DNA of 64,000 nt from a plasmid. Numbering within the stretch: position 1 is the stretch's first letter; every line of letters begins with the position of its first letter. The notes beneath the pieces were generated by a model, which did not search any database, was not told the origin of the DNA, and saw only the letters and a program-made list of their open reading frames with translations. Shown one piece after another: positions 6,786 to 43,155 of this stretch. The translations under genes were made by a program, and so were the position numbers. The DNA is taken from NCBI RefSeq assembly GCF_056712565.1, contig NZ_JBWXXM010000004.1, one strand, 5' to 3'.

Positions 6786-7978
6786 GTGACCTGGGACGAT
6801 CACAAGAAGAATTTTGCTCGCCTGGCGCGAGATGGTGGTTACACCATCGCACAATATGCCGCCGAGTTTAATCTCAACCCAAACACCGCACGTCGTTATC
6901 TCCGTGCATTCAAAGAAGACACCGGAACAGCGGACAGCCGTAAGCCAAATAAGCCTGTCAGAAAACCACTAAAAAGCATGATCATTGATCACGCTAATGA
7001 TCAACGTGCAGGTGATCACATTGTGGCTGAAATGGCTGAAAAACAAAGAGTTAATGCTGTTGTCAGTGCCGCAGTCGAGAACGCGAAGCGCCAGAATAAG
7101 CGCATAAATGATCGTTCTGATGATCATGACGTGATCACCCGCGCCCACCGGACCTTACGTGATCGCCTGGAACGCGACACCCTGGATGATGATGGTGAAC
7201 GCTTTGAATTCGAAGCTGGCGATTACCTGATAGATAACGTTGAAGCGCGGAAGGCCGCGCGCGCTATGTTGCGTCGGTCCGGGGCTGATGTTCTGGAAAC
7301 CACTCTTCTGGAAAAGTCTCTCTCTCATCTCCTTATGCTGGAGAACGCCAGGGATACGTGTATTCGCTTGGTTCAGGAAATGCGCGATCAGCAAAAAGAC
7401 GATGATGAAGGAACTCCGCCTGAATACCGTATCGCGAGCATGCTAAACAGCTGTTCCGCGCAGATAAGCAGCCTGATCAACACCATTTACAGCATCCGGA
7501 ATAACTATCGAAAAGAAAGCCGGGAGGCGGAAAAGCACGCTTTGTCTATGGGGCAAGCTGGCATTGTAAGCTGGCATACGAACGAAAGCGTGAAAACAAC
7601 TGGTCAGTGCTGGAGGCAGCTGAATTCATCGAGGCGCATGGAGGGAAAGTACCGCCCCTGATGCTGGAGCAAATCAAAGCCGATCTGCGTGCTCCTAAGA
7701 CCAATACCGATGATGAGGAAAGGCAAACAGCCGTCGGTGGCCCTTCTCTTGAAGATCTGGACAAAGTTGCGCGAGAACGGGCCGCCAACCGCCGCGCCGA
7801 TGCCGCATTGTGGATTGAGCAGCGTAGGGAAGAAATCGCCGATATCGTTGATACAGGCGGTTATGGAGATGTTGATACTGAAGGTGTATCAAACGACCCA
7901 TGGCTGGAACAAGACCTGGACGAAGACGAGGAGGAAGACGAAGAAGTTACCCGCAAGCTATACGGGGATGATGATTAA
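6786..7978 (+). CDS. pacA: terminase small subunit PacA, reading frame broken in this sequence (ORFs 6786-7661 and 7607-7978)
   Basis: Contains the pac hexamer cluster; directly precedes pacB; total span 1193 nt (one short of a multiple of 3); the second frame reads continuously upstream to about 7580. Confidence 0.65.
6979..7137. other. pac packaging site: 4 + 3 TGATCA/G hexamers flanking the cleavage region
   Basis: TGATCA at 6979, 6986, 6998, 7013 and TGATCG/TGATCA at 7109, 7121, 7132; each contains a Dam GATC; the 4+3 layout is that of P1 pac. Confidence 0.75.
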
Positions 7979-9462
7979 TGGCCAGAAGTTGCGTAACGGA
8001 TCCACGTTGGCGCGAGCTGGTGGCGCTATATCGTTATGACTGGATTGCTGCCGCTGATGTTTTGTTCGGCAAAACACCTACCTGGCAGCAGGATCTGATT
8101 ATTGAGTCTGTGCAGGAACAGGGTAGCAAGACATCTGTTTCGTCTGGTCACGGTACCGGGAAATCAGACATGACTTCTATCATGATCATGTTGTTCATAA
8201 TCATGTATCCAGGTGCCCGTGCCATTATCGTTGCGAACAAAATTCAGCAGGTAATGACCGGTATATTCAAGTACATCAAGATAAACTGGGCTACTGCCAC
8301 CAGCCGTTTCCCATGGCTTGCTGATTATTTTGTTCTGACAGAAACCGCTTTCTATGAGATTACTGGTAAAGGTGTATGGACTGTAGTACCGAAGGGCTTT
8401 CGTCTGGGAAGTGAAGAAGCTCTCGCCGGTGAACACGCAGATCATCTTCTGTATATTATCGATGAAGCCTCCGGTGTCAGTGATAGAGCTTTCGGTATCA
8501 TCACCGGTGCTCTTACCGGACAGGATAACCGCATCTTATTGCTGTCACAGCCTACACGCCCAAGCGGCTATTTCTACGATACACACCATAAACTGGCCAA
8601 GCGTCCTGGTAACCCTGATGGCGTTTATACGGCGATCACGCTTAACAGTGAGGAATCACCGTTGGTAACGCCAGCATTTATCAAAATGAAGCTGGCGGAG
8701 TACGGCGGGCGTGATAACCCTATGTACATGATTAAGGTACGCGGCCTATTCCCTAAATCACAGGATGGCTTCCTTCTTGGACGTGATGAGGTTGAACGTG
8801 CGACGCGGCGGAAAGTCAAGATTGCCAAAGGATGGGGCTGGCTTGCATGTGTGGACGTTGCTGGTGGTACGGGACGGGATAAGTCCGTTATCAATATCAT
8901 GATGGTGTCCGGCCAGAGAAATAAACGCCGTGTAATCAACTATCGAATGCTGGAATACACAGACGTTACAGAAACGCAGCTTGCCGCCAAAATTTTCGCA
9001 GAATGTAATCCTGAGCGATTCCCAAATATCACCATAGCGATAGACGGCGATGGGCTGGGTAAAGCAACGGCGGATCTGATGTACGAGTATTATGGTATTA
9101 CCGTACAGCGTATACGCTGGGGTAAAAAGATGCATAGCCGTGAAGATAAGAGCCTGTACTTTGATAAACGTGCTTATGCCAACGTTCAAGCCGCAGAGGC
9201 CGTAAAATCTGGTCGTATGAGACTGGATAAGGGTAATGAAACTATTGAGGAAGCGTCGAAAATCCCTGTAGGGATTAACTCCGCAGGTCAATGGAAGGTG
9301 ATGAGTAAGGAGGATATGAAGAAAAAACTCAACCTGCACTCACCAGACCATTGGGATACATATTGTTTCGCTATGCTGGCGGATTATGTTCCCCAGGATG
9401 AAGTGCTTAGCGTCGAAGACGAAGCGCAGGTTGATGAAGCTCTGGCATGGCTTAATGAATAA
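7978..9462 (+). CDS. pacB: terminase large subunit PacB
   Basis: 494-aa product; follows pacA; terminase-like ATPase region. Confidence 0.85.
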
Positions 9463-9486
9463 CTCATTGACCATGCCGGATGGAAA

Positions 9487-10338: not shown

Positions 10339-10360
10339 TGATCCTCCTCCAGAATTGACA

Positions 10361-10403
10361 TGGCCAACAACTCACAGCGGATTACACTGGGAGTTGTTGG
10401 CCA
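10361..10403 (-). promoter_or_regulatory. perfect 13-bp inverted repeat in the coi-c1 intercistronic region
   Basis: tggccaacaactc ...17 nt... gagttgttggcca. Confidence 0.35.
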
Positions 10404-10448
10404 CCATTATAGAAGGATCCAACGAAAATAATAGATTTATTAGTGCAT

Positions 10449-10658
10449 TTATTGTGAGTCTGGCTGGTTAGTGGCCATGAGATATTCGATTGTGTCAGTG
10501 AGATCATCCAGGTCGTCTTGGGTGATGCGGTACTCCTGATTGGATATCTTTGAGTAGTGTTCAGCAATGGCGCGGGCAGCGTCGGTTTCGGCGGGGTCTA
10601 CAGATAAAGCGTTAGAGCAATGTCTAACGTCGTCGATGGTTGGTGGAATGAAAGCCAT
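10449..10658 (-). CDS. coi: Coi, C1 inactivator
   Basis: 69-aa product directly upstream of c1 on the same strand. Confidence 0.75.
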   Translation of the reverse strand: MAFIPPTIDDVRHCSNALSVDPAETDAARAIAEHYSKISNQEYRITQDDLDDLTDTIEYLMATNQPDSQ

Positions 10659-10896: not shown

Positions 10897-10913
10897 TAAT
10901 TTATTAGAGCAAT
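10897..10913 (-). promoter_or_regulatory. C1 operator (Op99-type) upstream of coi-c1
   Basis: Plus strand taatttattagagcaat; reverse complement matches ATTGCTCTAATAAATT(A), 16/17. Confidence 0.55.
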
Positions 10914-11029: not shown

Positions 11030-11063
11030 TTCAGACCTAATAACTTCGTATAGCATACATTAT
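11030..11063. other. loxP site-specific recombination site
   Basis: Exact 34-bp ATAACTTCGTATAGCATACATTATACGAAGTTAT (13-bp inverted repeats plus 8-bp spacer). Confidence 0.97.
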
Positions 11064-11171
11064 ACGAAGTTATCTTAAGGGTTATTGAACATGATCAATT
11101 TACCTGTAAATCCATACAGTTCAATACCTTATCAGGTCAAATAGTGATCACTTGATCATTTGATCAAGGTT

Positions 11172-13100: not shown

Positions 13101-13127
13101 GGCGGCCATTAGGCCGCCTTTTTTTTT
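13101..13127 (+). terminator. intrinsic terminator-like hairpin 6 nt upstream of the ref start codon
   Basis: ggcggcc atta ggccgcc followed by T9. Confidence 0.55.
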
Positions 13128-13132: not shown

Positions 13133-13693
13133 ATGAAAACAATCGAACAAAAACTTGAACAGCGCCGCGAGTGGCAGAAGGCAGCCAGAGAACGAGCGAT
13201 CGCTCGGCAACGGGAAAAGTTGGCTGACCCCGCCTGGCGAGAATCGCAATATCAGAAAATGCGGGATTCTATCGACCGCCGTATCGCTAAACAGAAAGAG
13301 CGCCCACCAGCCAGCAAAACGCGGAAAAGTGCGGTAAAGATAAAATCTCGTGGCTTGAAGGGGCGAACATCGACAGCGGAGGAACGGAGCATCGCCAATG
13401 CTCTTGGCGCTCTCCCCTGCATTGCCTGCTACATGCATGGAGTAATATCTGAAGAGGTATCTCTGCACCATATCTCCGGTCGTACCGCGCCGGGTTGTCA
13501 CAAAAAGCAATTGCCCCTTTGTAGATGGCACCACCAGCATGCAGCACCGGCTGAAGTAAGAGAAAAATACCCCTGGCTGGTCCCTGTTCATGCCGATGGT
13601 GTGGTTGGAGGCAAGAAAGAATTCACCTTGCTGAACAAGTCAGAGATGGAGTTGCTGGCTGACGCCTATGAGATGGCAAACATCATGCACTAA
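13133..13693 (+). CDS. ref: Ref, HNH-family recombination enhancement endonuclease
   Basis: 186-aa product; HNH-like CYMHGVISEEVSLHHISG...CRWHH; P1 position after cre/c8. Confidence 0.85.
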   Translation: MKTIEQKLEQRREWQKAARERAIARQREKLADPAWRESQYQKMRDSIDRRIAKQKERPPASKTRKSAVKIKSRGLKGRTSTAEERSIANALGALPCIACYMHGVISEEVSLHHISGRTAPGCHKKQLPLCRWHHQHAAPAEVREKYPWLVPVHADGVVGGKKEFTLLNKSEMELLADAYEMANIMH

Positions 13694-14617: not shown

Positions 14618-15754
14618 ATGAAAGCAATGGGGAATGAAGTTTATCAAAGTCAAAAATGCAAGTTGAAATATTCAAAATCTCAAATTGATAGGGCTGCTCA
14701 ATTGATAAGGCACGGGTGTAGTGACGAAGAAAGGCAGCAATCTATTGAAATGATACAAAATTTCCGTGAGCTGCATCTTTATCCATTAATGCTCATGAAA
14801 AATCATTTAGCAAGAGCAGCTGCTAAGGTTGACAAGGACAAAAAGATTCTCGTTGCAAGAAGACTTAAGCGACTTTCTACCATAATAGATAAACTAGAGC
14901 GTCCTAGTCTTGATGGAGGCAGAACTAGCAATGCAATTAAATTAACACGGATGCAGGACGTTGGCGGATGTAGGGCCATTGTCAGAAACTTAGACCAGTT
15001 GATACAGCTAAAGGAACGTCTTTTAAAAAGCAAATCTGTTCATAGGATTGTTAAAGAGTATGATTATCTTACTCCCAAAGACAGCGGCTATAGTGGAATC
15101 CACCTTGCATACAGTTGCTTCGATCAGAAAGAGGATCAATATCCGTGGCGAAAAACAAAGATTGAGATACAGTTAAGAACTCAATTGCAGCATGCTTGGG
15201 CTACCAGCCTTGAAATAATTGATACCCTTGAAGGTATCAAGCTGAAAACTTCAAGTGAAGGGCATCCAGAATGGAGACGATTTTTCTATCTAGCCGGATG
15301 TCTTGTAGCGCACGACGAAAAAGCCTGCACTCTTGATGAGCTAGTTGTATCTCAGTATGAAGGCGAGCTTAAAGAGCTGGAACGGACTTTATCTGTACGG
15401 AGGAAACTAAGCACATACACCATCGCCTTAAATTTAACTTCTGACGCGAATTTGATTAAGAAGTTGCCAAAAAATCATAAGGGGCATTACTTAGTAACAA
15501 TGAGAAATGCAGAAAACAAGCCCAATACAAAAAACAAAAAAATGTTCCTAGTGTCTGTTCGCGCATTTAAAACAAAAGAAGCAGATGAAGCCCTTGAGGC
15601 CTTAAATAAAGACGATTCTAATCCTAATGTATTGATATCTGTTCTCGTTGCTACAGATAACATTAAGTCACTAAAAAAAGCCTACCCCAACTATTTTGGC
15701 TCAACAAACCAGTTTACAAAATTCTTAGATAAGCATCTTCGTAACGAAGGATAG
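14618..15754 (+). CDS. RelA/SpoT-domain nucleotidyltransferase (toxSAS-like), candidate fused toxin-antitoxin of the CapRel type
   Basis: 378-aa product with RLKRLSTIIDKLER, DVGGCRAIV (DxxGxR), DYLTPKDSGYSGIH and EIQLRTQLQHAWA (ExQxRT..HxW) motifs; no neighbouring antitoxin ORF; AT-rich flanks; Cys-poor Lys/Asn-rich C-terminal third. Confidence 0.7.
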   Translation: MKAMGNEVYQSQKCKLKYSKSQIDRAAQLIRHGCSDEERQQSIEMIQNFRELHLYPLMLMKNHLARAAAKVDKDKKILVARRLKRLSTIIDKLERPSLDGGRTSNAIKLTRMQDVGGCRAIVRNLDQLIQLKERLLKSKSVHRIVKEYDYLTPKDSGYSGIHLAYSCFDQKEDQYPWRKTKIEIQLRTQLQHAWATSLEIIDTLEGIKLKTSSEGHPEWRRFFYLAGCLVAHDEKACTLDELVVSQYEGELKELERTLSVRRKLSTYTIALNLTSDANLIKKLPKNHKGHYLVTMRNAENKPNTKNKKMFLVSVRAFKTKEADEALEALNKDDSNPNVLISVLVATDNIKSLKKAYPNYFGSTNQFTKFLDKHLRNEG

Positions 15755-16509: not shown

Positions 16510-19500
16510 TTATGCGTATTGTTGGATGACGGCCAGAACGTCCGCCACGTTGTGTTTTGTCTCGATAATCCACCAGTTACCCGGGAAATCGCTGTTCTTC
16601 GCCTTCGCTGGCAGCCAGCGAGCGCCGAATTTCGCCTTGATTGCGTCTTTCGCACGGAAAAGAACGCCTTTCATGCCTGAGGCTTCCTGAAGCCCAAATA
16701 CCTCGCCAGCGGCGAATTTTGGTGCGTACATCATCTTCAGGTCGGCGGTGGATACGCGATAATTCAGACCAAGAGACTGAGCTATGCTGGTGGCATCACC
16801 CTGTGTTGATGATAACTCTTCTTGTTTCTCGTTTCTGGCGGCAATCTCTTCCTCCGTGATGTTGCCAAGGGCTAGGTTTATCCGATCAGCGTCGGCCTGT
16901 TTCTCTTCATCGGTGCGCCCGGCAAGAACCGTGTTAATTCTCTGCAATATCTCCACATGATTCTTGCGCATGCTGAGCAATTCCGGCGTAACCTCGTTAA
17001 GATCCACCAGCCCAAGGATGGCAAGGTCGGAAAACATTGATACCAGGTTGTAGGTCATGCGATAGCTGAGTTGACCATAGGCTGATGGCAACTTCACAGC
17101 ATCCATTTGATAGGCATCCATAAATTTAGAGCCGTCGTTTACGACATCCGCTATTGCAGGTGTGATTTTCCCTGTGGTGGCGGCCTCCCTGATTGCTGTT
17201 ACCCACGATTGAGTCAGCGCGGCGACTGCATGATTCAGATTGGCTTCCCGTTCTGCTACGATGCGCGCGCTTGCTGCGTCCATTGCCTGCTTGATCTCGG
17301 CTTTATTGCTGTAAATGCCAATGGTGCCAAACTGTGCTGTGGTGATCTCATAATCTGACCCCCGGAACTCATTGGTACCGAAAATGGCATTGGTGACTTC
17401 AAGTTCAGAATCCCCGTTACGAGTAGCCCCCTGGCTTGTTTTTTCCGGCATTCTGGCGATCGCATCCGCTATTTTCTCCTGAATTGCTTCAGGGGATAGC
17501 GTATCTCCGTATGACGCGATTACATCGCCATAATTGGAGCCAAACAATTCAACCAGGAATGTTTCTGCCGAACGGATCTGGCGGTTATTCCCTTCCGACA
17601 TCATACCAAGCACCCATTTTGCAATTGACGACTTCAGCGCGTCGTCACGGCGATCCGGGTAAACCGCATGCTTCAGTGGGTCCGTATAGGTACCAACAAA
17701 ATCAATGCTATAGCCTGACTCTGTAGTCTGAACGCCGTACGAGTCAGTTATTTTGATCATGCCGCGCTGCTGGAAACGGTAGAAATCGTCACAGGAAATG
17801 ATGTCGTTAATCCCGGCGATGGAGACGCCACCACTGATTTTCTGCATAACAGCATCTTCATCGGGAGTTACATCCACCTGTTTATCCAGCGTCTTCACAT
17901 CCCAGTTACCCGATTTGGTGCCTTTGAAGGTAAAGATGATCTCCACGTCTGCGCGCTGGCTGTCGAAGTCCAGCGACTTAATGCGAACGATATCACCGGC
18001 ACAATCGTAGTATTGGCCTACACGCCATGAGCGATCGCCGATAACAAGGAACTCACTCGCATGGTTAACCAGGTCAGGATCAACATCCAGAATGCCTTTA
18101 TTTATTGCATCCTCCACCAGCGGGCGCAGGCGTTTGATATCCGTCGCGGCCTTCTGAGTACGGTTCAATAATTTCTCATAGCGGGAGATGGCTTGAGAGA
18201 TATTAGCCTTGCGCTGAATGGCGTTTTTCAACGACGCGCGATACTGTGCTAACAACATACGGTCTGTGTGATGGACGCTCCCCCAGCGGGCCTTCCAGTC
18301 TGCGTTATCAGCTGCTTTGGCCATTACCGCCTGTTTGAATTTGGCGACGTCGGCGGTGGTCTTTTCAAGTTCCGCTTTGCTTCGCTCTAATTCAGCGGTA
18401 AGTACCTCCACATCCTCGCCAGCTGCGTGCTGCGCCTTGATGTAGTTCTGAAGGTCGATAGTAGCCTGTTCTTTCTGGCGAGCGCGTTGCGCGGCTTTCG
18501 CCTTATCCATTTGAACCTGCATCATTGCCAGACGTTCGCCATCATCCTTAGCGGTATACATCTGCATTTCGATCATATCGTTGGCGTCGGCGTTCTCCAT
18601 TTCTGACTTATCTGAACGGAGGATATCGGAGATCCAGCCTGCTTTACGCTTCAGCGTCTTCAGTCGGTATTCATCGAAAGAACCCTTGCCGCAGTAGTAG
18701 TGAACGCGAACGCTTGCACGGTTGGAGCCAACTCGGGCACCGCGACCGTTACGCTGTGCGATACTGGCTGGTGTCCATGGCAACGTCAGATGATGGATGT
18801 CAGTCGTTCCTCGATGCAGGTTGATACCCACCTCTGCCTTTTTGTTGCAGATGATGATCGGAGTCCGGCCCTCCTGGAAGTCGGCAGCAATCTTTTCCAG
18901 CCCACCCAGCGACATTTCATTTTGCTGCGCGATATAGGCGTCATACAGAGCCATTTGCTCGTTGTATTTCGCTATCTGTGCATCTGTTGGTTCATCCGGT
19001 AGCTCTTTCGGCGGTTTAACCGCTTTCAGTTTCTTACCGGTTTTACCTGCCTCGGCAACCGTCTGAGCATTCAGGATCCCCACCTTTGAAGGTTCAAGGT
19101 TAAGAGCATTGCAGATAATGCGCTTGAGCTTCTGGTGTTGCGTTTTTTCATCGGTGAAGATGATTTGCTTACCTTCCGGGAAAAACTCCTTCAGCGTGGC
19201 AATCAGCTTCGCGTATTTGGGCGTAACGGGGTGAGTTACGGTCTGTTCGTCAATGCCAAACTTGGCCAGGCGCTTATTCACTTCCTGCTCGAACGCTTCC
19301 GGAACCTGCAACTGAATAAACTCGCCCTTATCTATCAGGGAGTATTGCGATTGCTGCGTGATTGAATCATCACTGTCGTCGTCTTCGCTGGTGGCTTGTT
19401 TAGGCAAACTGTCCGCCAGCTGCTGCACCGCATCGGCGTACTCCGGCAGGAAACGATAGGTGATCCGGCGATAGTACAGGTCCATGTCAGTACATACGCG

Positions 19501-22500
19501 GTCCATATCCCTGATTATTGAGAAGATCGGACGGGCTTTCTCGTGCTCAATCACGCCGTCTTCATTGACCGAGGTCGTTACGCCATTGTTGGCTTTGGCC
19601 GCCGCTTCCGCCTGCTGACGCAATTCTTCATACGCCGCCAGTTGTTCTTCAGTAAGTGGTGCATCCTGCTGGTGTTCGTCCAGCTCCGGGATCTCCACGG
19701 TATCCTTAACGTCTTCCGCCGTTTTAAGCGTTACCCAGCGATGGAATATACCGCGCAGCGCATCAAGGTTTTCAAAGCCCACCAGCGCCATTTTTTCTTC
19801 AACTTCACCGCTAATTTTCTGTACCGTTTCCAGCCTGGTCTTGCCGAAGAATTTAACGAAGTCATCAGGACCGTAGATCCCCATGTTCTGCCAGTATTCC
19901 TTCGGCAGAACATGAGAAAGCATGTTGTATGCATCGATCGGGGTGTTAACGACTGGCGTTGCAGTCAGGAGAACCGGCCCGCGCCCGCCATTCTTTTTCA
20001 TCAGGTACGCGTTTTTAATTGCCATATCTCGCGCCGATTGCGCCACCGCGCTGGTGGGCAGATAGGCCAGTTGTGACGCTTCGCGACCATTTTTATAGCT
20101 ATTGCGGTAGTTGTGACCTTCGTCGGCGATCACACTATCGAAGCCCATATCCTCAAAGTACGGATACTTCTCTGCTTTTTCGGTGCCGGTATCTGAATAC
20201 TCCGACAATACCCGGCGACGCGCGGCCTCTTTGCGGTGGGAGTCGGAGTCCATTGCGCTGGCTACGCGCCCGGCTGCAACGAAGTCATAAAGCATATCCT
20301 GTGCATGCTCATCTACGGTGTCATCACGTAGCGGAATGCGGGCGTATTGTTCTTTGGTAAACACGACTGCACGGTAATTTGAGTGCGGGATCGCGTTCAT
20401 CCGCGCCGTGATAGTGGCTTCATCTGCCAGTTTTAGGGCATCGCGCATAACTGGAGTGCCATCAGTACCAAGAACAGGTTTACCGTTCTCATCGAGCACC
20501 GGCACCTGGCGAATCTGATCGCCATCCATCAGCACATCAAGACCGACGAACAGGTAGTTACTGAATGCCTCTTCACTCAGGAATTCTTTTGCTTCGTAAT
20601 ACCAGTTTTCCAGCACTGATTTAGGCACTACATACGCAGTACGGGTGGAGCGACCGTTCTCATAGTTGAACGCCTCAAGCGCCAGCGCGGTCGTAGTTTT
20701 ACCCAGCCCGGTGCCGAAGCCCAGGATGCCGCGCCCATCTTCGGACAGTCGGCGCACTTCGCTATTCTGGTAATCAAATGGCTGGCGCTTACCGCTTAAT
20801 CCCTTCAACCCAAGCGGATCGCCAGAGTGTTCATACGGGATATTGCTATTGAACACATCGTTGTATTTGGCAACCAGTTCATCGTAGCGATCGTGCGTCT
20901 TGATCCACTTATTGAACTGGTCCTCAAGCAGTGCCATCTGCTCGCGGTAGCCGTTCGCCGTCGCGCTATCTTTGCCACCGATACGCGCACCATTGAGATA
21001 CTTTTCCAGCTGTGCCGGGAACCCGGTCGCGTTTTCACCTGATTTACGGTCCCACTCGTAGCGGATCTCGCCTGTTTCTTTATCCTTGCGCTGGACGACA
21101 CCGTATCGGTGCCCGACGAACAGACCATCACCACCGTGATAGGTGTCAGAAACCATTTCGTCGCCTTCCAGCTGCACTGACTGCACATAGCGAAGATCCG
21201 GATAGCCGTTTTCCTGCAAAAATTCCAGAATGACGGAACGGTCGAACCAACGGCTATTGAGCTTAAAGCGGATATTCTCTGCTGGCGTCTTGATGCGCTT
21301 CTCTTCGATCGCTGCCAGCTGATTAAGGACGTTGTTCTTTACTGGACCGTCGGGGAGTGTGGCAAGGAATTCCTGTTTTGGTGCCACTATCTCGTTAATG
21401 TCGCCGCTGGTGGCGCGGGCGAACGGAACAATCCCGCCATACGGTGAAACCGCAATGCCAGGGGTGCTGGCCAATAAATTAAGCAACTCGTCATCACTGG
21501 CTGGCAGTTCGCCGGTAAACGCAAGGCGGAAATCATCGAGCTGGATTGGATCGCGAGTGAGATCACTGTAGAGATAACGCAGGGTGTCCTGATAGCTGGT
21601 GGAGTCATAACTGGCGCTGGAATCATGCGTAACCAGTTTTCCTGTCAGCTCGTCAGAAATAGTGCCATCCAGCTTAATTGCACCACGGAAAGCAAACCAG
21701 GCGCGCGCACCGCTCCCCGATAATTTCGCTATCGGACCGCGACCGGGGTTACCAAAACGGTCAATCTCTGCCTGCAAACGGGATACCAGAGAAAGGCGCT
21801 GCTGTTCGATTTGTTCAGCACTATGCCCGGCGGCCTTCATGTCCTGATATTCAATTAACATCCGGCCAATCATCGCCCCGCGATACAAGCGTTCACGGTA
21901 TTTTTCAGGCTGGCTGTTAATCCAGTCCACCAGCTGCACCATATCGTCGCTGATTGATGTGGTGTACTTATCGCGGACATTTGCCATCTGGGTAAATGTC
22001 ATGCCGAGACGGCCTTCTGTTGTAGTCAGGTTACGCTGAAGAGCCTCCCAGCTATCCGCGCCATAACTGGCAGCATCGATCTTAAGTTCCTTCCCTGCAT
22101 CAGCTTCAATCCAGCGACCACCAGCATATTTTTGCCATACGCCATTAATCAGGCGCATTTCCCCTTCACCAACAACGTCTGCGGTCGGTGACGGTTCAGC
22201 CATATCGAGCAAAGACCAGTCGATACGGCTTTCGAAACGATGAATCAGCTTCGCTTTAAGAGCCTGGTTATCAATCTGACCGTCGGCACGAACCTCAATA
22301 CGCCCCTGGAAGCCCTTTTCCTGGGTGCCATGAACAAACCGGCGGCCATCCTTTTCAAACCACTTGCCAGAAATAAACGTTGACCAAAGCACATTTGCCG
22401 ATTCGAGAGTGCTTTCATCCACCAGGGGGATTTTCTCAGCCATCTCTGCCGGATGTTTGCGCATCAGCACCACATCTACGACCGTACTGGTCCCGTTAGC

Positions 22501-26923: not shown

Positions 26924-27055
26924 AAAGACCTCATAAGCGAATTTTTTACGCTCCAGGACAACACCCATTCACAGCCAATACCGACTGACTCGATCCCTTT
27001 AGAAGGCACAGGATAATGCAAATCACTTGTTAGCTACGTTTCAAAGATATACATT

Positions 27056-34175: not shown

Positions 34176-34176
34176 G

Positions 34177-36000: not shown

Positions 36001-36185
36001 ATGCTAATAGGCTATGTACGCATATAGACAAATGAACAAAACACAGCTATGCAGTGAAAAGCACTTGAAAGCGCAGGATGTGAGCTAATTTTTGCGAATA
36101 AGGCGAGCAGCAAAAAAGCTGGGCACCCTGGGTTAAAAAAGGTTCTGCGTATGCTTTCCAGAGGTGATACCCTAGTCTCGGACTA
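36001..36185 (+). pseudogene. degenerate 5' fragment of a Cin/Gin/Hin-family serine invertase gene, inverted relative to the adjacent invertase
   Basis: Translation MLIGYVRI*TNEQNTAMQ*KALESAGCELIFANKASSKKAGHPGLKKVLRMLSRGDTLVSD* aligns to invertase residues 1-61 with two in-frame stops. Confidence 0.6.
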
Positions 36186-36212: not shown

Positions 36213-36641
36213 TTAGCGGTCAGCAGGCGCTAGATACATCGAATTGATGTGCCGCGCGATAAATGTACCTATTCTATCAAGATAAATTACACCGACGCGG
36301 CAAGCACCCATGACATGAAAAAAGAAACGCCCCATGGGTGTTGATGTGTCAATACTGTCTGTCAGACTACGGAAATTAACACCTTTTTCCCGCAACTCCT
36401 CTATAAGCGTGATAAGGTGTTTCATACTTCTGCCAAGCCTATCCAGCTTCCAGACAACCAGCGTATCTCCTTCTGATAACGTTCTGAGCAGCTTTTTCAA
36501 GCCTGGTCTGGCTGACTTTGTTCCGCTTATTTTATCTTCAAAAATCAGTTCACATCCTGCGCAGTTCAGTGCATTTCTTTGTAAATCTGTGTTTTGGTCA
36601 TTTGTTGACACACGAATGTAGCCAATTTGCATGAAAAACAA
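36213..36641 (-). CDS. cin: Cin/Min-family serine DNA invertase, C-terminally truncated (homology ends after about residue 113 at about nt 36301)
   Basis: MQIGYIRVSTNDQNTDLQRNALNCAGCELIFEDKISGTKSARPGLKKLLRTLSEGDTLVVWKLDRLGRSMKHLITLIEELREKGVNFRSLTDSIDTSTPMGRFFFHVMGA matches the Gin/Hin/Cin catalytic domain; the next 29 residues are unrelated and the HTH domain is absent. Confidence 0.75.
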   Translation of the reverse strand: MFFMQIGYIRVSTNDQNTDLQRNALNCAGCELIFEDKISGTKSARPGLKKLLRTLSEGDTLVVWKLDRLGRSMKHLITLIEELREKGVNFRSLTDSIDTSTPMGRFFFHVMGACRVGVIYLDRIGTFIARHINSMYLAPADR

Positions 36642-36692: not shown

Positions 36693-36717
36693 AAAACGTT
36701 GGTTTGGGGGAAGGCTC
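36693..36717 (+). other. invertase crossover site xs-1 (cix/mix-like), starts cassette tfc-1
   Basis: aaaacgTTggtttgggggaaggctc; core AACGTTGGTTT resembles the Hin/Gin/Cin family core AAACC-NN-GGTTT; 62 bp from the divergent invertase start. Confidence 0.55.
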
Positions 36718-37171
36718 GGCACTGCCCGTTGGTGTACCTGTTCCATGGCCCTCAGCCACACCACCAACGGGGTGGCTGAAATGCAATGGTGCAGCATTTT
36801 CTTCTGAAAAGTACCCAAATCTGGCAAAGGTTTACCCTACTAATAAATTGCCGGATCTACGGGGCGAATTTATTCGCGGCTGGGATGACGGGCGGGGGAT
36901 TGACTCTGGCCGTAATTTATTATCTGCACAGAATGATGCAATTCAGAATATTGTTGGTTCTTTCGGGCGTACTCAGCTTTTTAGAGATGTACTTAGTTCA
37001 GGGCCATTTAGTCAACATGGTCAAGTATTATCTACAGGCCTAAAGGAAACGGAAATTATTGAGGGTTATGGCTCTTATAACTGGACATTCGACGCCTCTC
37101 GCTCAGTTCGTACAGCATCTGAAACCCGCCCCCGTAATATTGCATTTAATTACATCGTAAGGGCGGCATAA
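36704..37171 (+). CDS. silent tail-fibre C-terminal cassette tfc-1 (TTG start, no promoter)
   Basis: Begins (M/L)GEGSALPVGVPVPWPSATPPTGWLKCNGAAFSSEKYPNLAKVYPTNKLPDLRGEFIRGWDDGRG, same as the junction of S, then a unique 80-aa core, ends ETRPRNIAFNYIVRAA. Confidence 0.65.
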   Translation: MGEGSALPVGVPVPWPSATPPTGWLKCNGAAFSSEKYPNLAKVYPTNKLPDLRGEFIRGWDDGRGIDSGRNLLSAQNDAIQNIVGSFGRTQLFRDVLSSGPFSQHGQVLSTGLKETEIIEGYGSYNWTFDASRSVRTASETRPRNIAFNYIVRAA

Positions 37172-37195
37172 AAACGTTGGTTTGGGGGAAGGCTC
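37171..37195 (+). other. crossover site xs-2
   Basis: aaaacgttggtttgggggaaggctc directly after the tfc-1 stop. Confidence 0.55.
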
Positions 37196-37658
37196 AGCAT
37201 TGCCCGTTGGCGTGCCCGTTCCGTGGCCCTTAGAAACACCGCCAACGGGGTGGCTGAAATGTAACGGAGCAGCATTTTCTTCTGAAATGTATCCCAAACT
37301 GGCAAAGGCCTACCCCACCAATAAATTACCGGATTTACGGGGAGAATTTATTCGCGGCTGGGATGATGGGCGCGGGGTGGATGCGGGACGTGCTTTATTG
37401 AGCATTCAGACAGGAATGCTGGAAAAGCACCGACATATTGTTGTAGCCAATGATGGTTACGACACAAAAGATGAATGGGAGCTGGCGACAATTTTCAAAA
37501 AAACATACACACAAGGACGGGGGCTTGATGCCTCAAATACAGGAGGGAATTTGATTCCATCACCGACACTTCATTCTCGAGGGAGTATTGGTAATACTGG
37601 CGGGAGTGAAACCCGTCCACGAAATATCGCATTTAATTACATCGTAAGGGCGGCATAA
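37182..37658 (+). CDS. silent tail-fibre C-terminal cassette tfc-2
   Basis: Same conserved head (PLETPP/SSEMYPKLAKAYPT allele) and tail ETRPRNIAFNYIVRAA, distinct core. Confidence 0.65.
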   Translation: MGEGSALPVGVPVPWPLETPPTGWLKCNGAAFSSEMYPKLAKAYPTNKLPDLRGEFIRGWDDGRGVDAGRALLSIQTGMLEKHRHIVVANDGYDTKDEWELATIFKKTYTQGRGLDASNTGGNLIPSPTLHSRGSIGNTGGSETRPRNIAFNYIVRAA

Positions 37659-37682
37659 AAACGTTGGTTTGGGGGAAGGCTC
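37658..37682 (+). other. crossover site xs-3
   Basis: aaaacgttggtttgggggaaggctc. Confidence 0.55.
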
Positions 37683-38133
37683 TGCACTGCCTGTTGGTGT
37701 GCCCGTTCCGTGGCCCTTAGAAACACCACCAACGGGCTGGCTAAAATGCAATGGTGCAGCATTTTCTTCTGAAATGTATCCCAAACTGGCAAAGGCCTAC
37801 CCCACCAATAAATTACCGGATTTACGCGGTGAGTTTATCCGTGGTTGGGATGATGGGCGAGGTGTGGATGCGGGAAGGGTCATCTTAAGCATACAGGGGT
37901 GGTTACAGGAAGTCATTATCATAATATTCGGTCATGGGACGCGTGGATAACACGGTATTGGTGCCATTAATTGACATGAGGGGGGGATAGTCTGTTGTCG
38001 ACAGATAACGCCGTCAGGCATTTTCAGCGATTAATGGTAAATTTCACCAGTCAACTCTGTAGGTGATGGTATAAATTTTGTTGCTGTCAGGCCGCGAAAT
38101 ATCGCATTTAATTACATCGTAAGGGCGGCATAA
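37669..38133 (+). pseudogene. degenerate duplicate of cassette tfc-4 (frameshifted cassette tfc-3)
   Basis: Near-identical to 38144-38602 at DNA level but with indels (ggttacagg vs ggttaacagg); ORF stops after 93 codons although the terminal RPRNIAFNYIVRAA coding block is present at 38090-38133. Confidence 0.55.
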
Positions 38134-38157
38134 AAACGTTGGTTTGGGGGAAGGCTC
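38133..38157 (+). other. crossover site xs-4
   Basis: aaaacgttggtttgggggaaggctc. Confidence 0.55.
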
Positions 38158-38602
38158 TGCACTGCCTGTTGGTGTGCCCGTTCCGTGGCCCTTAGAAACA
38201 CCACCAACGGGCTGGCTAAAATGCAATGGTGCAGCATTTTCTTCTGAAATGTATCCCAAACTGGCAAAGGCCTACCCCACCAATAAATTACCGGATTTAC
38301 GCGGTGAGTTTATCCGTGGTTGGGATGATGGGCGAGGTGTGGATGCGGGAAGGGTCATCTTAAGCATACAGGGGTGGTTAACAGGAAGTCATTATCATAA
38401 TATTCGGTCATGGGACGCGTGGGATAACACGGTATTGGTGCCAAATGACAGAGGGGGGGATAGTCTGTTGTCGACAGATAACGCCGTCCGGCAAGGAGCG
38501 ATTAATGGTAAATTTACCAGTCAATACAGAACGGAGTTATCTGGGGGGAATGAAACCCGCCCACGTAACATTGCCTTCAATTATATTGTGAGAGCAGCAT
38601 AA
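38144..38602 (+). CDS. silent tail-fibre C-terminal cassette tfc-4, coupled to a tail fibre assembly gene
   Basis: 152-aa cassette; stop overlaps the ATG of the following tfa gene (taATGg). Confidence 0.65.
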   Translation: MGEGSALPVGVPVPWPLETPPTGWLKCNGAAFSSEMYPKLAKAYPTNKLPDLRGEFIRGWDDGRGVDAGRVILSIQGWLTGSHYHNIRSWDAWDNTVLVPNDRGGDSLLSTDNAVRQGAINGKFTSQYRTELSGGNETRPRNIAFNYIVRAA

Positions 38603-39213
38603 TGGATAATGCGATATTAAATAGCGAACTTATAGCCATACAGGCAGGAAACATTATCGTTTATAACTATGATGGTGGTAATCGGGAATATATTTCTGCA
38701 TCAACTGAATATCTTGCTGTTGGCGTTGGTATTCCGGCAAATTCTTGTTTGGATGCTCCAGGCTCACATAAAGCAGGTTATGCGATTCTCCGTTCAGAGG
38801 ATTTAAGTTCATGGGAGTATGTGCCAGATCATCGTGGCGAAACTGTCTATAGCATTGACACTGGGAATCCCGAAGAAATCACGGTGTTGGGTGACTATCC
38901 GGAAAATACAACCACTATCGCCCCGCTAACACCATACGACAAATGGGATGGAGAGAAATGGGTGGTTGATACTGAGGCTCAACATAGTGCAGCTGTAGAG
39001 GCAGCAGAAACAAAACGTCAGTCATTGATTGATACTGCGATGGATTCCATTAGTCTGATTCAGTTGAAATTACGGGCTGGACGGAAGTTGACGCAGGCAG
39101 AAACCACGCAGCTTAACTCCGTGCTAGATTATATAGACGAGCTGAACGCGATGGATTTAACCACGGCACCAGATCTCAACTGGCCTGAAAAACAACTTTC
39201 TACAGCCAGTTGA
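38602..39213 (+). CDS. tail fibre assembly chaperone (Tfa / U-like)
   Basis: 203-aa product; Tfa-like C-terminal region DYIDELNAMD...WPE; translationally coupled to tfc-4, as U follows Sv in Mu/P1. Confidence 0.65.
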   Translation: MDNAILNSELIAIQAGNIIVYNYDGGNREYISASTEYLAVGVGIPANSCLDAPGSHKAGYAILRSEDLSSWEYVPDHRGETVYSIDTGNPEEITVLGDYPENTTTIAPLTPYDKWDGEKWVVDTEAQHSAAVEAAETKRQSLIDTAMDSISLIQLKLRAGRKLTQAETTQLNSVLDYIDELNAMDLTTAPDLNWPEKQLSTAS

Positions 39214-39218
39214 TATAA

Positions 39219-39716
39219 TTAATCCGCCCTCACAATATAATTAAATGCAATATTACGAGGGCGGGTTTCTAAGCCAGCAGTACCTAAATTAGCTACGGAC
39301 TGTTTATATGTTTTAAAAGTTCCATAATTAGGGGCTGGCAATCCTGCATCGCTTGTGTTCCCCCATCTGATAACTCCCGTATTACCACTAGTAGCCCATG
39401 CCTCGTCAAAGTAGAAATTAATTGAGCGGTCAGTTGCTACGGTTGATTTTGACGGTAATCCGTGAGCATGATCCTCCGTTGCATATCCTTGCTCGCTTAA
39501 AATAGAGCGACCAGAGTCAATCCCTCGCCCATCATCCCAGCCACGGATAAACTCACCGCGTAAATCAGGTAATTTTAACGTTGGGTAAACCTTTGCCAGA
39601 TTTGGGTACTTTTCAGAAGAAAATGCTGCACCATTGCATTTCAGCCACCCCGTTGGCGGTGTGGCTGAGGGCCATGGAATAGGTACACCAACGGGCAGCG
39701 CCGAGCCTTCCCCTAA
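39219..39716 (-). CDS. silent tail-fibre C-terminal cassette tfc-5 (no start codon: TTA at the crossover site)
   Basis: Open frame LGEGSALPVGVPIPWPSATPP...ETRPRNIAFNYIVRAD; missing from the ORF track because it begins TTA-GGG instead of TTG-GGG. Confidence 0.55.
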   Translation of the reverse strand, partial: LGEGSALPVGVPIPWPSATPPTGWLKCNGAAFSSEKYPNLAKVYPTLKLPDLRGEFIRGWDDGRGIDSGRSILSEQGYATEDHAHGLPSKSTVATDRSINFYFDEAWATSGNTGVIRWGNTSDAGLPAPNYGTFKTYKQSVANLGTAGLETRPRNIAFNYIVRAD

Positions 39717-39727
39717 ACCAACGTTTT
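39703..39727 (-). other. crossover site xs-5 (TTA variant, like the site in S)
   Basis: Plus strand gagccttcccctaaaccaacgtttt. Confidence 0.55.
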
Positions 39728-40155
39728 CATGCCGCCCTTACGATATAATTAAACGCAATGTTACGAGGACGAATGGTTACATAATTAACCCCATCACCTC
39801 GTGAAGGCCCTGCAAATGAAAAACGGGAAAATCCTGGTTGGTTAGAAACAATTTGGTCATAGTTATTGATTGAATGACCAGACCCAATGTCGAAATTACC
39901 TCCGTAATGAGAAAAACTTGTACCATCCTGCCCTGAAAGCAGGGTACGTCCCGCATCAATCCCGCGCCCATCATCCCAGCCACGGATAAATTCACCGCGT
40001 AAATCCGGTAATTTATTGGTGGGGTAGGCTTTTGCCAGTTTGGGATACATTTCAGAAGAAAATGCTGCACCATTGCATTTTAGCCAGCCCGTTGGTGGTG
40101 TTTCTAAGGGCCACGGAACGGGCACACCAACAGGCAATGCTGAGCCTTCCCCCAA
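39727..40155 (-). CDS. silent tail-fibre C-terminal cassette tfc-6
   Basis: 142-aa; conserved head and tail, unique core. Confidence 0.65.
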   Translation of the reverse strand: MGEGSALPVGVPVPWPLETPPTGWLKCNGAAFSSEMYPKLAKAYPTNKLPDLRGEFIRGWDDGRGIDAGRTLLSGQDGTSFSHYGGNFDIGSGHSINNYDQIVSNQPGFSRFSFAGPSRGDGVNYVTIRPRNIAFNYIVRAA

Positions 40156-40166
40156 ACCAACGTTTT
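40142..40166 (-). other. crossover site xs-6
   Basis: Plus strand gagccttcccccaaaccaacgtttt. Confidence 0.55.
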
Positions 40167-40669
40167 TATGCCGCCCTTACGATGTAATTAAATGCAACGT
40201 TGCGAGGGCGAGTTTCTGTACCTACATTTCCACTAATTTCACCATAACGTTTAACACTACGAGAGCTAATAGCTCGTAGTGAGGAAGGCACCTTATGACC
40301 GGGTTCGTCCGTTTTAACTATTCCCCCGTCACCGTATGTAGCTAGTATTCCTGGATTTACGCCTTCCCGTGCACTTCCTGCGGCGAGTCCGTCCCCTGTC
40401 CATAATTCCATATAGTGTGCATGGTCCAAAATTGTGTGTGGCTGCCAATTAAGCAAAGCGCGGCCAGCATCCACCCCGCGCCCATCATCCCAGCCACGGA
40501 TAAATTCACCGCGTAAATCAGGTAATTTTAACGTTGGGTAAACCTTTGCCAGATTTGGGTACTTTTCAGAAGAAAATGCTGCACCATTGCATTTCAGCCA
40601 CCCCGTTGGCGGTGTGGCTGAGGGCCATGGAATAGGTACACCAACGGGCAGCGCCGAGCCTTCCCCTAA
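40166..40669 (-). CDS. silent tail-fibre C-terminal cassette tfc-7 (no start codon; ORF track shows only its GTG-started distal 102 aa)
   Basis: Continuous frame LGEGSALPVGVPIPWPSATPP...GRGVDAGRALLNWQ...ETRPRNVAFNYIVRAA. Confidence 0.55.
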   Translation of the reverse strand, partial: LGEGSALPVGVPIPWPSATPPTGWLKCNGAAFSSEKYPNLAKVYPTLKLPDLRGEFIRGWDDGRGVDAGRALLNWQPHTILDHAHYMELWTGDGLAAGSAREGVNPGILATYGDGGIVKTDEPGHKVPSSLRAISSRSVKRYGEISGNVGTETRPRNVAFNYIVRAA

Positions 40670-40680
40670 ACCAACGTTTT
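40656..40680 (-). other. crossover site xs-7 (TTA variant)
   Basis: Plus strand gagccttcccctaaaccaacgtttt. Confidence 0.55.
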
Positions 40681-41141
40681 TATGCCGCCCTTACGATATA
40701 ATTAAAGGCAATATTACGAGGACGGTTTTCATTAGCTGTTGGCACGACACGAGAGGCGTCGAATCCAAGGTCATCGGTTTTGCCTATATCAGTTGTGTTA
40801 TTCGGCATTCTCGCAGATCGTGTTCCTGCATCATAAAAAGCCCCTCTGATTGCATCAAAAGACATGCCAATCCCGCCATCTGCGAACCCCTCAATATTTC
40901 TTATTGCATCCCCCTGTGAAGATAATAATTGTCGCCCGGCATCCACACCACGTCCGTCATCCCAGCCACGAATAAATTCACCGCGTAAATCCGGCAATTT
41001 ATTAGTAGGGTAAACCTTTGCCAGATTTGGGTACTTTTCAGAAGAAAATGCTGCTCCGTTACATTTCAGCCACCCCGTTGGCGGAGTGGCTGAGGGCCAC
41101 GGAACAGGTACGCCAACAGGCAATGCTGAGCCTTCCCCCAA
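40680..41141 (-). CDS. silent tail-fibre C-terminal cassette tfc-8
   Basis: 153-aa; conserved head and tail, unique core. Confidence 0.65.
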   Translation of the reverse strand: MGEGSALPVGVPVPWPSATPPTGWLKCNGAAFSSEKYPNLAKVYPTNKLPDLRGEFIRGWDDGRGVDAGRQLLSSQGDAIRNIEGFADGGIGMSFDAIRGAFYDAGTRSARMPNNTTDIGKTDDLGFDASRVVPTANENRPRNIAFNYIVRAA

Positions 41142-41152
41142 ACCAACGTTTT
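41128..41152 (-). other. crossover site xs-8
   Basis: Plus strand gagccttcccccaaaccaacgtttt. Confidence 0.55.
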
Positions 41153-41505
41153 TATGTGGCCCTTACAATGTAATTAAAAGCAACGTTGCGGGGGCGCATT
41201 GATATCCATGCCCCGGTAAAATTATCCTCTGCCGTCCTTTGAGTGCCTGTTATGGAGTTATCTGATGATGCTGGAACATAATCGCTATTATCTCCTGCTT
41301 TAGGATTAGCAGGGTTTCCAACAGTTATAACAGAATCAGCAGCGATACCTACTTTGACATTAGTAGTCAGATCGACACCGTAATAATCCTGCAAAGCTGT
41401 ACGAATAAATGTTGCAGTCTGACCACTTAGCAATGAACGCCCTGTATCAATCCCTCTCGAATCATCCCAACCACGGATAAACTCACCGCGTAAATCAGGT
41501 AATTT
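41152..41505 (-). CDS. distal part of the tail-fibre cassette now in expression position (tfc-9), in frame with S but separated from it by a TAA at 41506-41508
   Basis: Frame continues from the S stop: *KLPDLRGEFIRGWDDSRGIDTGRSLLSGQTATFIR...SMRPRNVAFNYIVRAT. Confidence 0.55.
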   Translation of the reverse strand, partial: KLPDLRGEFIRGWDDSRGIDTGRSLLSGQTATFIRTALQDYYGVDLTTNVKVGIAADSVITVGNPANPKAGDNSDYVPASSDNSITGTQRTAEDNFTGAWISMRPRNVAFNYIVRAT

Positions 41506-43155
41506 TTACGTGGGGTAAACCTTTGCCAGATTTGGGTACTTTTCAGAAGAAAATGCTGCTCCGTTACATTTCAGCCACCCCGTTGGTGGTGTGGCGGAGG
41601 GCCATGGAACAGGTACACCAACGGGCAGCGCCGAGCCTTCCCCTAAACCAAGGTAATCAAGAACGCTATGAATACTGGTCTTACCAAGAATGGCGCGTCC
41701 AACACTTGTCAATGCAGTTAACGCGGCACGATCAACACCTGTGAAATAAGGGAGTTTATCTGCTGCTGTAGCTAGTGCCGCTAGAGCAGTGAGCGTAGCG
41801 TCTGCCGCTTGCTTTCCATTAGCCAAATCATATGCAGCCTTGACAGCTTTCGGTGTGGCGGCCAGCACTTCAGACGTGCTGTTAGTGGCACTACTGAGCT
41901 GAGTGATGCCTTTCGCTGTCAATGAAGCTGTTGGCACACCAGTGATCTGATTCCAGGGATGTGTATGACTGGATGGTGCCTTTCCGGCTGCTAGATCGTA
42001 TGCAGCTTTAACCGCTTTTGGAGTTGCAGCTAATGTTTCAGAAGTGCTGTTGGTGTCGCTACTGAGCTGAACTATCCCTTTTTGTGTCGTGGTTGCATCC
42101 TGGGCTGTATACTTCCCGTTAGCCAAATCATATGCAGCCTTGACAGCTTTCGGTGTGGCGGCCAGCACTTCGGACGTACTGTTAGTGGCACTACTGAGCT
42201 GAGTGATGCCTTTCGCTGTCAATGAAGCTGTTGGCACACCAGTGATCTGATTCCAGGGATGTGTATGACTGGATGGTGCCTTTCCGGCTGCTAGATCGTA
42301 TGCAGCTTTAACCGCTTTTGGAGTTGCAGCTAATCTGTTGGTGTCGCTACTGAGCTGAACTATCCCTTTTTGTGTCGTGGTTGCATCCTGGGCTGTATAC
42401 TTCCCGTTAGCCAAATCATATGCAGCCTTGACAGCTTTCGGTGTGGCGGCCAGCACTTCGGACGTACTGTTAGTGGCACTACTGAGCTGAACTAATCCCT
42501 TTTGCGTTGTGCTTGCATCCTGCGCCGTATACTTGCTTTTCGCCAGATCGTAGGCTTTTTTAACTGCCAGCGAACTCGCAGCAACATCACTTCTGGTACT
42601 GGTTACAGAGTCTGAAATATCAATGCCGATCGTGCGGTTGATACGCTCGGATGTATCAATCATCTCTTGAGTAATGGTAGATACGCCAGCAGGGATATTC
42701 ACCGTACAAACCAGCAGTTCCCCATCACCTAACTGATATGAATCGGTATAGGTTCTGGCAACAAATTCAGCTGCATGAATATGTGACGCGGTATTAACCT
42801 GATAGGTATCTTCTCCAAGAAGGTATCTTCCCTTCAGCACAATTGCATATTTCTTGCCTGCGTTAAGTGCAAGAGAGATATCCTTACGATGCTGAATAGT
42901 TACCTGGTAGAATTCACCAATATCCACTGACGCCGCGCCAGCGGTTTTATCTCCATCCACTGAGGTGATTAACAGGTTCATCCCACCGCCAGGCTTAGGC
43001 AAGAAACCAGCATAAAATCCCGGGTCAACAATTCCCCTGAATTTTCGGTTTAGAGCGGCTGACAGATATGGTTCGTGGTATTGCACATCAGCCACCAGAG
43101 CCAACGACTCGGGTGATGGGTAAGTAACCGATGTAACAACTGTAACGTCATTCAT
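41506..43155 (-). CDS. tail fibre protein S (constant N-terminal part plus start of the expressed cassette), ends at an in-frame ochre codon inside the conserved cassette head
   Basis: Start MNDVTVV behind AAGGA; internal repeats of the phage tail-fibre repeat motif (SSATNSTSEVLAATPKAVKAAYDLA); ends ...LGEGSALPVGVPVPWPSATPPTGWLKCNGAAFSSEKYPNLAKVYPT*. Confidence 0.7.
   Translation of the reverse strand: MNDVTVVTSVTYPSPESLALVADVQYHEPYLSAALNRKFRGIVDPGFYAGFLPKPGGGMNLLITSVDGDKTAGAASVDIGEFYQVTIQHRKDISLALNAGKKYAIVLKGRYLLGEDTYQVNTASHIHAAEFVARTYTDSYQLGDGELLVCTVNIPAGVSTITQEMIDTSERINRTIGIDISDSVTSTRSDVAASSLAVKKAYDLAKSKYTAQDASTTQKGLVQLSSATNSTSEVLAATPKAVKAAYDLANGKYTAQDATTTQKGIVQLSSDTNRLAATPKAVKAAYDLAAGKAPSSHTHPWNQITGVPTASLTAKGITQLSSATNSTSEVLAATPKAVKAAYDLANGKYTAQDATTTQKGIVQLSSDTNSTSETLAATPKAVKAAYDLAAGKAPSSHTHPWNQITGVPTASLTAKGITQLSSATNSTSEVLAATPKAVKAAYDLANGKQAADATLTALAALATAADKLPYFTGVDRAALTALTSVGRAILGKTSIHSVLDYLGLGEGSALPVGVPVPWPSATPPTGWLKCNGAAFSSEKYPNLAKVYPT
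41633..41658 (-). other. crossover site xs-9 inside S (constant/variable junction)
   Basis: Plus strand gagccttcccctaaaccaaggtaatc; core ACCTTGGTTTAGG, reverse-complement-symmetric around TT like Hin/Gin/Cin-family sites. Confidence 0.55.
41815..42530. repeat. about 300-bp tandem direct repeats (2.4 copies) inside S
   Basis: 41821-42120 and 42121-42405 nearly identical (second copy lacks 15 bp near 42336), third partial copy to about 42530. Confidence 0.7.

Follow-up and report, generated by a model that had tools for sequence, protein, structure and literature searches.

Three private lesions in the assembled sequence of an otherwise complete P1-like plasmid prophage with a nine-cassette tail-fibre array

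A multiple DNA inversion system, Min, was reportedly described for plasmid p15B by Sandmeier, Iida and Arber in 1990-92, and six crossover sites are said to have been found in it. A system of this type is situated in a plasmid stretch of 64,000 bp (contig NZ_JBWXXM010000004.1 of NCBI RefSeq assembly GCF_056712565.1; the whole stretch is referred to as the window), which, judged by its gene set, is a P1-like plasmid prophage (Punavirus, SJ46-type). As in p15B Min and in the Gin, Cin, Pin and Hin systems, a serine invertase gene lies beside more than two crossover sites at the junction between the constant and the variable part of a fibre gene, and, as in p15B Min, alternative C-terminal cassettes are found on both strands. 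Judged by this organization, the array is of the p15B-Min multiple inversion type and not the two-state C segment of P1; the annotation of P1 records homology to p15B on both sides of the region. Despite the general similarity to p15B Min, there are differences: the window contains nine crossover sites and nine cassettes, and its invertase is devoid of the DNA-binding domain, such that the system would be unable to run alone. Over 185 residues, the intact allele of this invertase closely resembles Mu Gin, and the invertase of a related P1-like plasmid was reported to be 98.5% identical to p15B Min (PMC6906374).

Concerning defective P1-like elements, truncated cin-type invertases are described for pSvP1, pTZ20_1P and pJIE250-3 (PMC6906374), and P1-like plasmids are known that were converted from phage-plasmids by gene inactivation (PMC10879196). 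The P1 backbone is common to the window and these elements, and so are the truncation of a cin-type invertase, the impairment of the fibre switch and, presumably, the loss of the phage cycle. Whereas their losses came about by insertion sequence (IS) insertions, rearrangements and multi-gene deletions, the window exhibits three small private lesions only, i.e., a single-base deletion in the packaging gene pacA, a deletion of 249 bp in the invertase gene and an ochre codon in the tail-fibre gene S. Inactivation of this kind is known for phage-plasmids and ordinary; the present case stands out in that its lesions are small, few in number and private, the rest of the genome being pristine. The balance tips, if not by much, towards a complete prophage that was under purifying selection until recently and that carries three private lesions, among which the invertase deletion is most likely real and the pacA frameshift probably so. 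As assembled, we infer, the element could not make infectious particles.

A 3-kb probe around pacA is 99.7% identical to Salmonella phage SJ46 and 88% identical to P1, and the window is collinear with SJ46 throughout, SJ46 being in reverse orientation. Among E. coli plasmids, to which the closest relatives found belong, E17 p1 is 99.0% identical over 24 kb, and the best match of the window in PLSDB reaches 98.5%. Megablast and tblastn comparisons with P1, SJ46 and E17 p1 recovered a collinear P1-type gene set that includes pacAB, c1, cre, dar, lysis, tail and baseplate genes. SJ46, E17 p1 and pGD27-62 exhibit the same gene order and content over the whole window at 96-99% nucleotide identity; common to all of them and the window are phd-doc, lpa-pacAB-c1, cre/loxP, the toxSAS gene, darB, the lysis and tail genes and a dead cin remnant. 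The T deletion in pacA, the 249-bp invertase deletion and the ochre in S are found in none of these three.

The gene for P1 pacase subunit A, pacA (6786..7978, plus strand), is frameshifted. One T of a TT pair is lost at 7566/7567 (...CATTG[T]TAAGC...) compared with SJ46, phiW39, 813R1 and E17 p1, such that the frame shifts at codon 261 of 397 and runs into a premature stop at 7659-7661. The resulting open reading frame (ORF; 6786..7661) comprises 291 aa instead of 397, and the native C-terminal frame persists as an ORF at 7607-7978. The lesion site is a 2-nt run flanked by two 10-nt direct repeats (AAGCTGGCAT). The deletion occurs in none of the 555 E. coli records covering the site, all of which are at most 98.8% identical over 81 nt; the junction has no exact match in IMG/VR, and the exact 291-aa product was not found in a collection of 15 billion proteins. 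The frameshift is regarded as probably real. The pac site (6979..7137, plus strand), situated inside pacA upstream of the frameshift, is apparently intact: four TGATCA hexamers occupy 6979-7018, and three TGATCR hexamers follow at 7109-7137, the 4+3 layout established for P1 pac. Intact, too, is the large terminase gene pacB (7978..9462, plus strand), the protein of which is 100% identical to PacB of SJ46. In P1, PacA and PacB are both required for pac cleavage, so that a truncated PacA should block packaging. PacA would be cut at residue 260 of 397, with the N-terminal helix-turn-helix region and the cis-acting pac kept and the C-terminal third lost; pac cleavage and headful packaging would be expected to fail, and this frameshift alone would be enough to block the phage cycle. 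Since the start of pacB overlaps the native stop of pacA, the upstream frameshift may in addition lower pacB translation, which would probably be uncoupled. In phage vB_EcoM-813R1 (ON470617.2, 787-2039), pacA is annotated in two pieces with the break at another position; split pacA genes in public P1-like records may often be assembly errors.

The Min/Pin/Gin-type serine invertase gene (36213..36632, minus strand) is truncated, its product consisting of 110 native residues (36632 down to 36302) followed by 29 out-of-frame residues. The reference allele of 190 aa, found in pGD27-62 and p31B22CPO057_B, has the same nucleotides 1-331, and both of these plasmids are identical to the window across the invertase region save for the 249 nt that the window lacks at the junction 36302/36301, namely codons 111-190 with the stop codon and the next 7 nt. 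The ends of the deletion exhibit essentially no microhomology, and the sequence is unique, not repeated. In the truncated protein the catalytic domain PF00239 is recognized at residues 3-111 (E = 3.3e-40), including the motif YIRVSTNDQ, but the Pfam Resolvase match ends at position 120 of the 145-position profile, and HTH_7 is not found by Pfam, whereas the full 190-aa allele possesses HTH_7 at residues 138-180; the deletion accounts for the loss of the HTH_7 DNA-binding domain and of most of helix E. Over residues 1-185, the full allele can be aligned with the Mu Gin structures 4m6f and 3uj3, and it is identical to the UniRef entry Q05517_ECOLX, named 'DNA-invertase'. Where the 81-nt junction probe has 81 nt in the window, other E. 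coli records span 330 nt: among 170 matching records, the 12 listed ones all match the junction probe in two pieces. Neither has the junction an exact match in IMG/VR, nor was the truncated product found among the 15 billion proteins. The 5' part of the gene, which is retained, aligns without gaps to the annotated recombinational enhancer of P1 cin and is a candidate enhancer. We hold this deletion to be real with high confidence.

The multiple-inversion fibre-tip array (36699..41651, both strands) is defined by a crossover motif, TTGGTTTRGGGGAAGG, with nine matches between 36699 and 41651, where 0.06 would be expected by chance. Four of the sites are on the plus strand (36699, 37177, 37664, 38139) and five on the minus strand (39706, 40145, 40659, 41131, 41636), and every site opens in frame (…GLGEGSALPVG…) into a cassette of ~150 aa that contains a tail-collar domain and the conserved end RPRNIAFNYIVRAA. 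Seven of the nine cassettes are intact and open, i.e., A (36701-37171), B (37179-37658) and D (38141-38602) on the plus strand, and F (39219-39719), E (39727-40158), G (40166-40672) and H (40680-41144) on the minus strand. Cassette C (37664/37666-38138, plus strand) is a frameshifted, silent hybrid; cassette I (41152-41649, minus strand) contains the ochre and is the one fused to the constant part of S in the assembled isomer. A single tail-fibre assembly gene (U-like, Caudo_TAP; 38602..39213, plus strand) follows downstream of cassette D, and this sole U-like gene is inverted relative to S in the assembled isomer. Such arrays are found in hundreds of E. coli P1-like plasmids, with a different arrangement in each, and similar arrays with recombinase genes occur at 3687 places on E. 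coli chromosomes. Defective silent cassettes are routine in them, several being marked as frameshifted by PGAP in E17 p1 and p31B22CPO057_B.

The S tail-fibre ORF (41506..43155, minus strand) comprises 549 codons, which cover the constant part with its Phage_fiber_2 repeats and the first 47 residues of cassette I. It ends at an in-frame TAA at 41506-41508 (codon 550), where four relatives have TTA (Leu). Past the ochre, the frame runs on for 117 codons to the conserved end ...RPRNVAFNYIVRAT, and without the ochre, S would extend to 41152 and measure about 667 aa. The truncated protein keeps the fibre repeats, and only 33 of the 57 positions of the collar domain remain; in plasmid AR_0372 unnamed4, cassette I is the expressed tip and intact. 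A private synonymous change (CCA to CCC) is found at 41512, 5 nt from the ochre. Since none of 309 E. coli records exceeds 97.5% identity across the 81 nt at the ochre site, both changes are private; the site has no exact match in IMG/VR, and the truncated S was not found among the 15 billion proteins. Cassette I exhibits, furthermore, a private in-frame deletion of 9 nt at 41342/41343, by which Tyr-Ala-Thr is lost between GCT repeats. That the ochre itself is real is slightly favoured.

Cassette C is a mosaic. Over the first 289 nt it matches cassette D at 100%, and over the last ~95 nt it matches, likewise at 100%, a cassette of a different type, which pEc-050-T0_3 contains in intact form; in the ~150 nt between these two zones, the backbone is that of D, interrupted by short patches of the other type and by contractions of runs by 1 nt. 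In one piece, cassette C was found in no E. coli record. It constitutes either a fourth private defect or a consensus blend, and the mosaics in the cassettes could have been produced by repeated ectopic conversion.

All three lesions had been noticed in an earlier reading of the window made without database searches (the sequence-only reading), which placed the frame break in pacA at about 7585, within 20 nt of the T deletion, located the invertase truncation at about 36301, exactly beside the last native base, and gave the ochre in S at its very position. Its view that the lesions are independent and that each of them impairs the production of particles does not hold in function. Loss of a Cin-type invertase alone does not block particle production. 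Without helix E and the DNA-binding domain, the invertase would leave the plasmid unable to shuffle the nine-cassette array alone, and the change from Leu to ochre inside the tail-collar domain of the expressed cassette I would result in a fibre without receptor-binding tip; jointly, these two lesions would freeze the switch on a broken tip. Because seven other cassettes are intact, the ochre would be fatal only through the frozen switch. The invertases Gin, Cin, Pin and Hin cross-complement each other; with the crossover sites and the enhancer-homologous region intact, the fibre might in principle be restored by an invertase of the Gin/Pin family acting in trans.

No sibling with the lesions was found among phages, in PLSDB (best 98.5%), in 5426 E. 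coli genomes (best 99.0%), in IMG/VR or in the collection of 15 billion proteins. The comparison with related genomes that the sequence-only reading had suggested revealed no lesion to be shared (matching E. coli records: 555 for pacA, 170 for the invertase, of which the 12 listed ones were checked row by row, and 309 for S). Apart from the lesions, ~55 coding sequences (CDS) are intact, and ~50 kb of other coding sequence is free of frameshifts and stops; portal, sheath, baseplate and lysis genes, besides darB, are intact in comparison with E17 p1 and SJ46. In the 24-kb comparison with E17 p1, 23 of 24 CDS are intact, and 5 indels stand against 231 substitutions. Two of the three private 1-nt indels are intergenic, though intergenic DNA makes up 9% of this stretch; they are situated at ~13118-13126 (T8 to T9, upstream of ref) and at ~26959-26961 (AAA to AA, 37 nt upstream of the lysozyme start). 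This bias argues against random error and is as expected after selection.

Codon changes private to the window are 115 synonymous and 20 non-synonymous ones (85% synonymous), and the same count yields 152:29 in E17 p1 and 191:46 in SJ46. Considering the lytic and structural genes alone, the window exhibits 94:18 (16% non-synonymous) versus 17% in E17 p1 and 19% in SJ46, whereas ~75% would be expected without selection. These ratios, similar to those of the relatives, point to purifying selection on the phage genes until very recently, and together with the intact gene set they imply that the lesions are either very recent or not real. Long-term decay was rejected on the synonymous and non-synonymous counts. 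General low assembly quality was likewise rejected, given ~55 intact CDS, 5 indels in 24 kb and 1.3 kb that are 100% identical to independent plasmids.

Several points weigh against the reading of a recently inactivated, otherwise complete prophage. The three lesions are all known from the assembled sequence alone; matches to the invertase junction were checked row by row in only 12 of the 170 records; and the loss of a single base in a 2-nt run between the two AAGCTGGCAT repeats is a conceivable consensus error in pacA. In cassette I, both private substitutions carry the base of the paralogous cassettes E, B, C and D, whereas three differing sites between them retain the state of cassette I, and the chance that both would match the paralogues is about 0.002-0.01. 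Fine, non-contiguous mosaics, as found in cassettes C and I, are typical of a blended consensus (e.g., of different inversion isomers) and hard to obtain from one conversion tract. If reads of different isomers were blended, however, an invertase would have been active in culture, which is awkward with a real invertase deletion unless the activity was supplied by the host. A mixed explanation takes the deletion in the invertase gene as real, and the pacA frameshift as real or not, and regards the S ochre and cassette C as artefacts of a consensus in which reads of different inversion isomers, or reads cross-mapped between paralogous cassettes, were blended. It appears possible, though it is not the favoured one: the non-contiguous match of the ochre and its neighbour to the state of E, B, C and D fits it, as does cassette C, which is pure D and then pure other type at its ends and patchy with 1-nt run contractions between them. 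Yet cassette I and the E/B/C/D type differ at 26 sites, of which only 2 have switched, and the private 9-nt deletion between GCT repeats resembles true slippage, so that cassette I would have a real history of its own; the relatives, too, hold cassettes marked as frameshifted by PGAP, so defects arise naturally, and heterogeneity of isomers requires an active invertase.

That all three lesions are sequencing or assembly artefacts, the real plasmid being a fully functional phage, is unlikely. Every lesion is private to this assembly, the small changes alter the length or the boundary of runs (T for TT in pacA, and in S TAAAAA for TTAAAA and CCCCA for CCCAA), blend-like mosaics exist in the cassette array, and further P1-like records contain split genes that resemble assembly errors (pacA of vB_EcoM-813R1, darB of SJ46); however, a clean deletion of 249 bp in non-repeated sequence is not a usual consensus error, the further ~50 kb of coding sequence are unbroken, and private 1-nt indels cluster in intergenic DNA. 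GTTAA is the context shared by the small changes of pacA, S and cassette C, which is judged a coincidence, and a systematic error linked to methylation or a motif was rejected: only 2 of 49 GTTAA/TTAAC sites differ from E17 p1, which corresponds to the background of 4.7%. The errors in homopolymers and repeats that the sequence-only reading had offered as one alternative do not account for the lesions in general, none of which is situated in a run of at least 3 bases and the largest of which lies in unique sequence; a repeat artefact stays a live explanation for the S ochre and cassette C only. Its other alternative, a decaying plasmid-prophage kept for its cargo, holds in so far as no infectious particles would be made from the element as assembled, and fails on the ~55 intact CDS, the 85% synonymous changes and the lack of cargo in the window. 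Slow erosion of an old phage-derived plasmid, domesticated long ago for its cargo or defence genes, is in the same way very improbable. Conversion of P1-like phage-plasmids to plasmids by gene inactivation is documented (PMC10879196), as are a truncated cin and altered fibre switches in P1-like plasmids (PMC6906374), and no damage is seen in phd-doc, the toxSAS gene or the Dar genes; but there are no further pseudogenes among the ~55 CDS, non-synonymous changes are, at 16%, as frequent in the lytic and structural genes as they are in E17 p1 and SJ46, the three lesions occur in no relative, and the window is without resistance cargo. There is, finally, a small probability that the lesions are real but bypassed in a helper-dependent transducible plasmid, with a host invertase of the Gin/Pin family flipping an intact cassette behind the constant part of S, and a P1-like phage, co-resident or superinfecting, supplying PacA, fibres or both and using the intact pac. 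The intact pac, the nine intact crossover sites with the enhancer-homologous region, the seven open cassettes, the 3687 chromosomal arrays with recombinase genes and the mutual replaceability of Gin, Cin, Pin and Hin are compatible with it. On the other hand, the host invertase and the helper phage are both hypothetical, nothing in the sequence indicates adaptation to such a lifestyle, and P1 immunity (c1 being intact) would normally exclude a homoimmune helper.

In the preferred reading of a prophage inactivated only recently, the ochre would be a change templated by paralogues, due either to ectopic conversion between cassettes or to a blended consensus in the repeat. A version with more specific steps, in which the lesions are real and the first on the way from a phage-plasmid to a plain or helper-dependent plasmid, the ochre having arisen by patchy ectopic conversion between the silent tip cassettes of the plasmid and been fixed by the loss of the invertase, is unlikely; if it were true, the element would inflict loss-of-function mutations on itself through its own multi-cassette switch. 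If the preferred reading is true, a phage-plasmid has been caught just after its inactivation and before secondary decay, a state rarely caught though conceptually expected from published work. For annotation, pacA, the invertase gene and S are to be treated as pseudogenes in this plasmid, and transduction or phage-like spread of cargo should not be assumed unless reads disprove the lesions. A nonsense mutation in a tail-fibre gene, furthermore, has to be judged against the whole multi-cassette array, and such arrays are the places where a consensus sequence is least trustworthy.

Next to the invertase, a remnant of a P1-type cin gene (36001..36177, plus strand) comprises the first 59 codons, with the codon of the catalytic Ser changed to TAG. 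This dead remnant, common to SJ46, pGD27-62 and p31B22CPO057_B, lies inverted beside the Min/Pin-type invertase and is the scar of an old replacement of the cin/C-segment module. The 123 nt between both genes contain a perfect hairpin and were considered as the end of a mobile element; they are conserved, ordinary sequence in relatives, and this candidate was rejected.

The maintenance and defence genes phd-doc, c1, cre/loxP, toxSAS and darB are intact, as the sequence-only reading had supposed. Phd, Doc, C1, Coi, Cre (343 aa) and the RelA/SpoT protein are full length, and loxP matches at 34 of 34 positions (11040-11073). The toxSAS gene (RelA/SpoT-domain, CapRel-like; 14627-15754, plus strand) is intact, and its protein is 100% identical to the allele of E17 p1 and only 74% identical to that of SJ46; this locus is strongly diversified among plasmids that are ~99% identical elsewhere. 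One intact ORF of 2255 codons (6768 nt; 16510-23277, minus strand) constitutes darB, as a single ORF does in E17 p1. In the SJ46 record, darB is annotated as two CDS, such that a lesion or an error is possible in that reference record. ParA and ParB of E17 p1 have no match within the window, which stops inside gene 23, and resistance or similar cargo was not seen in it.

In SJ46, a block of ~8.6 kb with Tn1721, IS903 and CTX-M-27 is situated between mat and ref, and an insQ element of the IS605 family between ddrA and ddrB; both are missing from the window (at 13665-13671 and 31897/31898, respectively). Three further candidate lesions were rejected. The indel in 'lys' of SJ46 (~26960) lies upstream of the true lysozyme ORF of 185 aa, which is intact; pmgG is intact in the window, the split gene being that of E17 p1; and Ant is a full-length mosaic allele. 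An alternative module is situated at 2150-3480, where an ORF of 216 aa (2180-2830) and other downstream sequence replace the genes for 310 aa and 120 aa of SJ46 and E17 p1. The whole module recurs at 100% identity in one chromosome and in at least 6 further P1-like plasmids of E. coli, and the 216-aa ORF, which had been considered as a lesion, is therefore a common allele.

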